This document shows positions 52,160 to 53,100 of a DNA stretch of 64,000 bases, in pieces. The position numbers and the translations under genes were made by a program. The stretch covers positions 905,878 through 969,877 of the forward strand of contig CAVPNI010000003.1 in the NCBI GenBank assembly GCA_963706715.1, in the 5' to 3' direction. The notes beneath the pieces were generated by a model, which was not told the DNA's origin, made no database searches, and saw only the letters and a program-made list of their open reading frames with translations. Origin of the DNA: an uncultured Verrucomicrobiae bacterium (GTDB lineage Bacteria > Verrucomicrobiota > Verrucomicrobiia > Chthoniobacterales > Xiphinematobacteraceae). Positions within the stretch are counted from its first letter, which is position 1, and each line of letters opens with the position of its first letter.

Positions 52160-53100
52160 GGTAGGTTTCCGACTTTCCGATTAAATTCGATCATTTCTTT
52201 CAATTGCTGATTTACAAAAGAACGATCATAGCCAGCGTTGCGAAGAATGTTTCTAAGATTCCAGACATCGGCTGCAAGATTACTGACGTTACTACCCAGG
52301 TCAACATTTTTGCCATAACTTCTTGTTAACCGATGTAGCTCCTTCCGAATATTGATTGTTACTCCCAGGCTATGCGAAGTCGAGCTAACCGCCACCTGAA
52401 CGCTATGATGTGGCGTGTGTGTGAGGTTCAATCCAGACTTTAAGTTTGCTCGACGTGCTTCTCCATAAAGCCCCACAAACAAATCTTCACCTGCTGAAGG
52501 ACGCGGGATGGTTATGAAATCGGCATTCCTAGAAAGAGGACGAATACCTTTAGAAATAATTCTAGCGGGGACGGAACCCGGTGCAGCAATAATAGACCCA
52601 GCCGCCACCAAATTGGAAACTATTGAATTCGGATCATAGGAGCCAGCGCGCGCATAAGGGGAAAGCCTTTCATTGAGCCAGGCTGCGTCTCTATACAAGT
52701 GGTGAGGTTGCCCTATTAAATCGAGTCCCGTGCCCGCTATGCTAAAGAAGACTGAAATCCCGCCCGGCACTGCATCGAGAACTGTATCGGCAATTGAATG
52801 GCTGACATTACTGATCTGTGTCCTCGCGTTTTGCCCAACTTGCGTAGCGATTCTCCCGGTAGGATCGGTCCAATTGGTAGGGTATGTCTGTTCTGATGCG
52901 ATTTGCCAGGATATTTGGATTTTATCCTGTTGATTTACAGAGAGAACGATGACTTTTGGCAGGCTCGTTTGGAGACTGTTGTAAAAAATTTTCCAGACGC
53001 TGTTTTTTGATGCATCAGGCAGACACGTCCAGACAGCAGCTATGATCCATAGAGCAAGAAGCCATGAAGGCAGGAGTATTCTTTTAGCTGCGGGGAACAT
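52156..53100 (-). CDS. Constant secretion-leader fused to Rhs-type toxin tip 1 (His-rich, nuclease-like)
   Basis: 74-aa leader identical to 60927 ORF, then TNWTDPTG; C-terminal HH...H motif. Confidence 0.8.
   Translation of the reverse strand: MFPAAKRILLPSWLLALWIIAAVWTCLPDASKNSVWKIFYNSLQTSLPKVIVLSVNQQDKIQISWQIASEQTYPTNWTDPTGRIATQVGQNARTQISNVSHSIADTVLDAVPGGISVFFSIAGTGLDLIGQPHHLYRDAAWLNERLSPYARAGSYDPNSIVSNLVAAGSIIAAPGSVPARIISKGIRPLSRNADFITIPRPSAGEDLFVGLYGEARRANLKSGLNLTHTPHHSVQVAVSSTSHSLGVTINIRKELHRLTRSYGKNVDLGSNVSNLAADVWNLRNILRNAGYDRSFVNQQLKEMIEFNRKVGNLP

Follow-up and report, generated by a model that had tools for sequence, protein, structure and literature searches.

A base-precise joint between an element-borne leader and Rhs-type toxin tips as a candidate crossover point

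The stretch of DNA analysed here (the window; 64,000 nucleotides (nt) of contig CAVPNI010000003.1, positions 905,878 to 969,877 of the forward strand, GenBank assembly GCA_963706715.1, from an uncultured Verrucomicrobiae bacterium) carries two copies, A and B, of an element whose DnaG-type primase and tyrosine recombinase (integrase) genes are followed by a short leader reading frame, and in each copy the leader runs in frame into a toxin tip of the kind found at the end of Rhs proteins. The copies are identical up to the end of the leader and differ past it, and the question that this locus raises is whether such a border is simply the end of a homologous segment or the point at which a recombinase exchanges strands. 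The original prediction, made on the letters of the window, had proposed the latter, with a crossover at or next to the CC of a proline codon. We examined the junction in the window, in all four copies of the element in the source genome (G000; 3.04 Mb, 4 contigs) and in relatives of the integrase from other phyla. On balance, we consider it probable that the junction is the crossover point of the right attachment site (attR) of an integrative element that targets Rhs genes.

The junction in four copies of the element

In a self-BLAST of the window, positions 52880-56173 and 60707-64000 are 100% identical over 3294 bp and the identity stops abruptly; the copy at 60707-64000 reaches the end of the window and, with it, that of contig C3. 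This repeat with its sharp end is real and far beyond chance. The minus strand reads GAACAGACATACCC TACCAATTGG at 52893-52870 and GAACAGACATACCC GGTGAATTAC at 60720-60697, the strings quoted in the original prediction being present as written. Aligned without gaps, copies A and B are 100% identical over the 300 nt before the junction; past it, the identity falls to 67% in the first 30 nt and to 27% in nt 31-90. The likeness left past the junction is coding, xN(W/Y)xDPTGR; it is confined to the amino-acid level, as had been claimed, the synonymous sites of the DPTGR stretch varying freely. A and B stand in tandem with a period of 7827 bp, and their features are the following (the bar marks the joint).

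51650..52159, minus strand: putative immunity gene A, 169 aa, HEAT repeats, 4-nt overlap with the toxin stop
52156..52881, minus strand: toxin tip A, starting PTNWTDPTGR
52882..53100, minus strand: leader A, 73 codons (ATG to Tyr73), hydrophobic near its N-terminus, part of the conserved backbone, ending at 52882|52881
53145..54233, minus strand: tyrosine recombinase A, 362 aa, XerC-like subfamily, Pfam Phage_integrase 132 bits
54236..57310, minus strand: DnaG-type primase A, 1024 aa, with zinc ribbon, Toprim domain and long C-terminal part
57388..59275, both strands: left backbone part, regulators and small open reading frames (ORFs)
57388-57849, plus strand: HTH_3 regulator, 153 aa
57839-58039 and 58041-58343, minus strand: small ORFs of the left backbone
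58411-58800, plus strand: HTH_3 protein, 129 aa
59696..60052, minus strand: putative immunity gene B, 118 aa, 4-nt overlap with the toxin stop
60049..60708, minus strand: toxin tip B, starting PVNYVDPTGR
60709..60927, minus strand: leader B, identical to leader A, junction 60709|60708
60972-62060, minus strand: integrase, copy B
62063 to 64000 (window and contig end), minus strand: primase, copy B, incomplete

The genome holds four copies of the backbone (~5.6-6.4 kb), which comprises the HTH regulators, the 1024-aa primase, the 362-aa XerC-like recombinase and the 73-codon leader.

Window 52882 onward: copy A
Window 60709 onward: copy B, cut by the contig end
G000:C3:756693 onward: copy C, 98.3% identical, left part cut by an insertion sequence (IS) at C3:762118
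G000:C1, to 12298: copy D, 99.8% identical

The 12-mer GAACAGACATAC occurs exactly four times in the whole genome, once per element copy. After ...ACATAC, copy A continues CCTACCAATTGG, copy B CCGGTGAATTAC, copy C CCCGTTGTCTAC and copy D GGAATCAACTGG. The first codon past the junction is CCN (Pro) in A, B and C but GGA (Gly) in D; thus the common break of the four copies lies after TAC (Tyr73), at a codon boundary (52882|52881 in A, 60709|60708 in B), and the Pro/Gly codon belongs to the variable part. The original prediction was right that the junction is precise and recurrent. The break itself lies 2 nt to the left of the point that it had named (52880|52879), and the CC is part of the toxin cassette, as D has GG there. 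Breaks at differing positions in other copies had been set beforehand as the outcome that would speak against a crossover point; instead, four of four copies stop at the same base. The backbones are 98.3-100% identical and are followed by four different toxin/immunity modules. At every junction the frame stays open to the end of a complete toxin, whose immunity gene overlaps it or lies next to it. The anatomy and the base-precise recurrence are direct observations; that the recombinase performs strand exchange at this base is what we infer.

The integrase belongs to the tyrosine recombinases (PF00589, E 1.9e-38, 132 bits). Residues R174, K198, H269, R272, H295 and Y304, which we take to be the catalytic R..K..HxxR..H..Y set, are invariant in an alignment of the integrase with two relatives. 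The protein scores above the cut-off of the XerC-like subfamily NF002331 (421.4 versus 371 bits). It stays below those of XerC itself (TIGR02224, 226.3 versus 335.15 bits), of XerD (TIGR02225, 230.5 versus 329.6 bits) and of the integron integrases (TIGR02249, 109.1 versus 265 bits; NF011946, 72.3 versus 435 bits), and these assignments were rejected.

The leader, separated from the integrase ORF by 44 nt, matches no Pfam or NCBIfam family, and in a search of 5.8 billion proteins its sole matches were the four proteins of this genome itself (4 matches among 12 candidates). We therefore made the comparison across genomes through the integrase. The four leader-toxin proteins gave no TIGR03696 (Rhs_assc_core) or RHS match in the Pfam and NCBIfam scans. 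Tip A has a ~115-aa N-terminal part in common with other tips (49-77% identity). Its C-terminal domain and tip D match no family in Pfam or NCBIfam, and tip B gives a weak TreTu_C match below the cut-off.

Rhs cores, toxin tips and flanks in the source genome

The tips behind the leaders can be compared with those on Rhs cores of the same genome. The gene at G000:C3:764267-773407 encodes a full-length Rhs protein of 3046 aa (RHS_repeat, DUF6531, Rhs-associated core domain), a polymorphic toxin by its RHS/YD repeats, core, variable tip and immunity gene. TIGR03696 matches it with 49.8 bits over residues 2743-2799, and the junction base lies 9 residues before the end of this match. The conserved end of the large Rhs proteins of the genome reads ISPDPxGHxGSxDLxSYAxxNP|xxxxDPTGR and is followed by variable tips and immunity genes; the tips behind all four leaders start exactly at P/G-xxxx-DPTGR. 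Tip C is identical over 389 nt to the tip on the 3046-aa Rhs 8.3 kb upstream, and ahead of the junction 0 bases agree (...GGAAAT|CCC in the Rhs core versus ...ACATAC|CCC in leader C). Tip D is identical over 68 nt to tips at C4:16790 and C4:21010, where 0 and 2 bases, respectively, agree ahead of the junction. Hence the same tips occur behind the leader and behind Rhs-type sequence, cut at the same base. The ...GGAAAT|CCC joint of core and tip, 8.3 kb upstream of C, is also of the reciprocal kind that the original prediction had suggested looking for. Its further claim, that a coding motif defines the target, agrees with the boundary before P/G-xxxx-DPTGR in this genome and does not always hold in relatives, where the junction can lie elsewhere in the Rhs tail (see below). 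The leader-toxin ORFs were also considered as classical Rhs orphan modules, and this was rejected since they have no core fragment upstream of the tip and share 0 bases with the core before the junction.

These data have to be weighed against a serious rival, which we nonetheless think unlikely, namely that the junction is only an end of homology: the leader-toxin genes would be ordinary cargo, tips would be exchanged by RecA-type recombination or gene conversion, much as in the classical displacement of Rhs C-termini, concerted evolution would hold the four backbones identical as far as the leader end and the attachment sites would lie elsewhere. Several features of the genome fit such homologous exchange. 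A perfect 389-bp direct repeat flanks copy C (G000:C3:756304-756692 and 764649-765037); it represents the first 130 codons of two tips, beyond which the toxin domains differ, one being a TNT-type NAD-glycohydrolase. The tips are mosaics whose N-terminal parts are common at 49-100% identity, the left flanks of the backbones differ as well as the right ones, and the leader end has none of the identity with core ends that a classical overlap region would show. Homologous exchange cannot, however, make the leader|tip joint, as leader and core share 0 bases upstream of it and thus offer no homology to guide an exchange there. It also leaves unaccounted for the joining of four different tips at one base, two of them with exact counterparts behind Rhs-type sequence.

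To the left of copy A stand ~420 nt of array-type spacer as well as tip B with immunity gene B. Left of copy C lie two IS pieces, an immunity region and the tip on the full-length Rhs core, and left of copy D a TrwC relaxase (948 aa), two ORFs, an IS fragment and a tip/immunity pair. By this anatomy, each backbone lies between two tip boundaries. The contig of copy D starts 10 nt before the core-type boundary NDP|VNFADPDGR of its left tip/immunity pair; as two contigs start at (within 10 nt of) a toxin-tip boundary and two finish in Rhs tails, we infer a full Rhs to the left of D. The relaxase adjoins the backbone only in D, where the element looks mobilizable; it is absent from A, and the left part of C is cut by the IS.

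Five orphan toxin modules of the genome have a second kind of leader, ~50 aa and signal-peptide-like (..LLLLLxGTTSVLARVVSSSS..GLF..), in which an M-like stretch (e.g. AGAAACCGCTGACTGGGCTTTTT) directly precedes a few Rhs-tail codons. They lie at

L001:1783-1938, 3152-3301 and 4531-4686 (G000:C3)
L004:10851-11048
L005:713-1009 (G000:C4:20713-21009)

and may be worn right ends of another element type.

The 2.5 kb just downstream of immunity gene A (window 49059-51569) recur with 92-98% identity at at least four other places of the genome (C3:486833, C3:330874, C1:220495, C2:374253); this segment carries a weak RadC-like JAB ORF (50320-50703) and two ORFs without family. ISL3-family transposase genes lie near copy A (window 44647-45978) and directly after the immunity gene of copy D (L003:13787-15232). 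The genome is rich in IS, several of which cut Rhs arrays (e.g. C3:762118-763561). The self-BLAST also gave short tandem duplications (57-125 nt units, 93-100% identity) at window 6596-6783, 4527-4637 and 29698-29763, far from the junction.

Relatives, an insertion in Xenorhabdus and motifs near the junction

The integrase scan, with one genome per species, gave at least 593 confirmed matches (at least 600 matched stretches), of which we analysed the best 80 loci. These share 35-59% integrase identity and come from Acidobacteriota, Planctomycetota, Verrucomicrobiota, Pseudomonadota (including Xenorhabdus), Actinomycetota and other phyla. A primase relative is present in 59 of the 80 loci and stands upstream of the integrase on the same strand in 54 of them. 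Among the 56 loci with at least 1.5 kb downstream of the integrase, 35 (15/29 and 20/27 in two batches) have an Rhs_assc_core match after it (same strand, within 3.2 kb, E<=1e-3), 27 of them over the curated cut-off; the other 21 have YD repeats only (n=1), a short NPxxxxDPTG motif only (n=2) or none of these (n=18). Note that Rhs tails were called by NCBIfam scans, a looser regular expression having been dropped for false matches. The link to Rhs tails is thus seen directly across the family, and many relatives keep a core tail after the integrase, unlike leader-toxins A-D. Five genomes were examined in full: in four of them, the integrase has an Rhs core end upstream of it and a tail downstream, 6.7-7.8 kb apart; the fifth has no Rhs_assc_core match anywhere. 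Among 40 other genomes of the same order, only G039 (53% identity) and G011 (40%) have a near integrase.

Arrays of up to 7 units occur. In genome G041, a full-length Rhs is followed by 7 tandem primase-integrase units and a second one by 3 units, as follows.

L114-L117 (G041:C5:919000-990000) and L112-L113 (G041:C6:3494000-3523000): tandem units spaced by 7.5-12.2 kb, with three tip types that recur

All ten element copies join Rhs sequence at one point, ...CCCCTTC|ACCCGAGG, and the two full-length Rhs genes read ...GGCAGATC|ACCCGAGG at the same point. This junction lies ~95 codons upstream of the DPxGR motif and that of Xenorhabdus lies in the SPDP stretch, so the target is not always the end motif. 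Tandem arrays are also present in G046, G065 and G084.

Genome G046 (gammaproteobacterial) has 9 integrase copies, several in tandem, and here a leader with the motif M1 described below runs into non-Rhs toxins (L072:1-258 and 8112-8369; G046:C33, C34 and C38). These toxins share F(K/Q)NGA(L/I)TG(A/S)FSxLF, the identity between copies stopping a few codons before this motif; the L072 toxins gave no Pfam or NCBIfam match that names their pre-toxin motif.

A filled and an empty site are found in Xenorhabdus. From left to right, G042 has an Rhs core and tail, a tip with its immunity gene, a 418-bp spacer, the primase, the integrase and a short leader; beyond the leader stand 54 nt of tail and a second, ADP-ribosyltransferase-like tip with its immunity gene, and then the spacer once more. 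G056 is a sister species in which the orthologue of the core (78% nt identity) leads directly into the second tip (84% nt identity), and the 6.85-kb block of tip, immunity gene, primase, integrase and leader is absent. The block is flanked in G042 by a 54-nt direct repeat in the tail, of 87% identity. Such a filled and empty pair with short target repeats has, judged from the two sequences, the pattern of a discrete insertion into an Rhs tail, which would have put a new tip on the core and left the old one behind the integrase. It also speaks against homologous exchange. In G000, no stretch is shared beyond the coding similarity of 27 nt past the junction.

Two DNA motifs lie between the integrase and the junction.

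52985..53007, minus strand: M1 of copy A, AAAAACAGCGTCTGGAAAATTTT, inside the leader, 129 nt after the integrase stop
60812-60834, minus strand: M1 of copy B
52895..52905, minus strand: M2 of copy A, CAAATCGCATC, a weaker second copy of the motif, ending 13 nt before the junction
60722-60732, minus strand: M2 of copy B

M1, an A-run/T-run dyad around a GC-rich centre, has a family consensus of about CRAAAAACCGCRTCTGGGGATTTTTT and stands between integrase and junction in many elements. With nhmmer, which was used because a fixed-length fuzzy search gave only 7 related loci, M1 was recovered (E<0.05) from 17 related loci, on the strand of the integrase. In 16 of them it follows the integrase by 0.2-2.1 kb, and in the remaining one it stands 5.8 kb before it, as expected for a preceding tandem unit. 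As different elements read M1 in different frames, it is conserved as DNA.

M1 might itself be the crossover in an integron-like system of M1-to-M1 units, in which the last 100 nt of the leader would travel with the toxin. Its being the best-conserved DNA feature of the family, its dyad shape and the frequency of tandem arrays suit this idea. Only four M1 copies exist in G000, though, one per element, and the left ends of C and D, which are not in tandem, have none; this speaks against M1 as the crossover. Moreover, the 100 nt from M1 to the junction are the same in all four copies despite their different tips (a single-nucleotide difference in C), and in G041 a motif copy lies 14 nt from the Rhs core junction. 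We thus hold a crossover at M1 to be quite improbable.

M2 stands shortly before the junction. It was first spotted by eye and then tested with a position weight matrix (PWM) of M1 built from 11 other loci, G000 left out, by scoring the 45 nt before the junction, with empirical p values against 3000 random 45-mers of the locus. In G000, M2 scores 11.1 bits and ends 13 nt before the junction (p 0.005); the PWM match ends 14 nt before it in G041 (p 0.007), 10 nt in G044 (p 0.007) and 15 nt in G042 (p 0.033). M2 is thus significant at four of the nine junctions tested, 10-15 nt before the break. The distance between motif and junction, measured directly, is kept in these four lineages while the junction shifts along the Rhs tail, which fits a machinery of the element rather than a border of toxin domains and is at odds with homologous exchange. 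A search made only by eye for an inverted repeat of M2 in the start of the toxin gave no convincing partner in G000. The pattern GCRTCWGRA has 9 matches in the window versus 4.8 expected, 4 of them in the two leaders; note that it was derived from those sites and is not independent of them.

Finally, a mis-joining of a long repeat to different flanks during assembly, which would make the junctions chimeric, is suggested by copy B running off the contig end and by contigs that start at tip boundaries or end in Rhs tails, where repeats broke the assembly, but can practically be discarded, as each junction leads in frame into a complete toxin with an immunity gene and the same architecture recurs in independent assemblies of other phyla, including complete chromosomes.

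The proposed exchange and its place among known systems

We propose the following scheme for a site-specific crossover at the leader end. The excised element would be a circle in which the leader runs into the toxin tip that belongs to the element. M1 and M2 would be putative recombinase sites, and strands would be exchanged ~13 nt beyond M2, at the codon boundary before P/G-xxxx-DPTGR, which in G000 is the start of the tip cassette. The exchange partner would be this boundary in a Rhs gene or a leader already resident. Once the element is integrated, the Rhs core would bear the incoming tip and immunity gene, and the displaced pair would end up behind the integrase, in frame with the leader. 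The latter would supply a start codon to the displaced tip, so that the translationally coupled immunity gene probably stays expressed. Tip B would then be the left-end cargo of copy A, and repeated events may lead to tandem elements such as B-A. The conditional parts of this scheme are that the integrase catalyses the exchange, that a circle forms, what the leader does and which tip travels with the element.

A number of observations weigh against such a crossover. Near-identical backbones carry different tips on their left side too, and the left end is undefined. The identity between A and D stops at window 59275, within a 10-nt string that is also present in an array spacer of contig C4. 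For the 389-bp repeat around copy C, homologous (Campbell-type) integration or gene conversion is the best explanation. The leader finishes in ACATAC, and these 6 nt differ from the Rhs core ends GGAAAT, CAGGAC and AACGAT; the classical overlap region is therefore missing and the recombinase would need to tolerate heterology. Third codon positions of the DPTGR stretch vary, and a DNA-specific right arm is not evident. M2 is not significant at five of the nine junctions (two G011 copies, two second-kind (type-2) leaders of G000, and G046). Leaders of the second kind have no integrase nearby, and the orphan modules behind them are unexplained by the scheme. No empty site was found for G000, the same-genus genomes G001 and G002 having no relative of tip A. 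None of the sequencing runs searched holds the stretch (best share 0.11 of sampled words).

The C4 spacer deserves a note of its own. It is homologous to the left flank of copy A and is interrupted at ...TAAGTAGTGA (L004:1461-1491), the same 10-nt string at which the backbone of copy A begins. The interrupting segment (L004 ~1492-3000) has a long opposite-strand frame, which, going by its sequence, may be a group II intron reverse transcriptase.

A broader proposal, which we believe and doubt in equal measure, is that the family of primase and XerC-like integrase is, across phyla, a dedicated machinery of toxin-tip displacement. It would insert in frame and place its own tip and immunity gene onto the resident core, its leader restarting the displaced tip so that the old immunity is kept, with tandem pile-up as a result. 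Its targets would be mostly Rhs genes and, in one genome, a non-Rhs toxin with F(K/Q)NGA(L/I)TG; the variant described here would exchange exactly at the cassette border, such that any Rhs tip could be captured or delivered in frame. If true, in-frame site-specific swapping of modules would explain orphan arrays, the integrases nearby and how fast tips spread horizontally among distant bacteria; the DNA site and the enzyme would both be defined and open to plasmid tests.

Some integrative elements insert in the 3' ends of genes (tRNA genes, guaA) and bring a replacement end. The element described here would resemble them in having an integrase next to one attachment-site end, a target gene kept intact by the new 3' part that is supplied, direct repeats of the target and tandem insertions, and its Xenorhabdus member shows this pattern. 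Unlike in those elements, the replacement would be a different toxin with its immunity gene, so the weapon would change, and the displaced end would receive a start codon.

In shufflons (Rci/sfx, plasmid R64), a tyrosine recombinase inverts resident segments between inverted sites. The likeness lies in sites within coding sequence, at the border between constant and variable C-terminal parts, with all products in frame. Here, by contrast, all modules point the same way, and new ones are brought by an element that carries the recombinase together with a primase (and, in D, a relaxase). Integrons likewise capture promoterless cassettes at a fixed site beside the integrase gene and form arrays with the newest cassette nearest the expression signal; the present integrase, however, falls below the IntI model (109 versus 265 bits) and capture would take place in frame, inside a gene.

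Homologous recombination with incoming tips has for over ten years been the explanation given for how Rhs and other polymorphic toxins diversify, the neighbouring recombinase genes being noted but left unexplained. In the discussion of PMC5727410, which cites Jackson et al. 2009 and Koskiniemi et al. 2014, the accepted model for new Rhs tips is homologous C-terminal displacement. Displacement arrays have a full Rhs followed by displaced tips with immunity genes, the tips being joined at the core end, and G000 has such arrays. In the classical case, as far as it is set out there, recombination proceeds through a retained piece of core, whereas here the displaced tip has no core piece, and an element-borne leader, directly after a tyrosine recombinase and a primase, is joined to it at one base.

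Recombinases have been noted near toxin and immunity genes before. The rAID-1 clusters of Bacteroidales are described as recombinase-associated immunity arrays (PMC12247911), defined there by a homologue of the Bacteroides fragilis rAID recombinase and, after it, at least 2 short co-oriented genes of low GC, and XerC/D-type genes are noted beside polyimmunity loci (PMC3482391). According to these descriptions, they share with our element a tyrosine recombinase beside co-oriented short toxin-fragment and immunity genes, conserved intergenic motifs and a suspected role in acquisition; rAID-1 differs in that its immunity arrays, as described, lack both a primase and a joint to a full Rhs, and no crossover point is defined for them. 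In the bee-gut bacteria Snodgrassella and Gilliamella, integrase-like genes recur beside Rhs loci in many strains; their role is given as unknown and a possible Rhs capture is suggested by the authors, with no anatomy, site or mechanism in the parts of that account compared here (PMC5727410). In the literature covered, which leaves most subscription journals and bioRxiv supplements outside its scope, no primase-integrase element that inserts in frame into Rhs genes is described. Overall, by analogy of mechanism, the closest kinds would be integrative elements that replace 3' ends and the in-frame C-terminal switching of the shufflon type.

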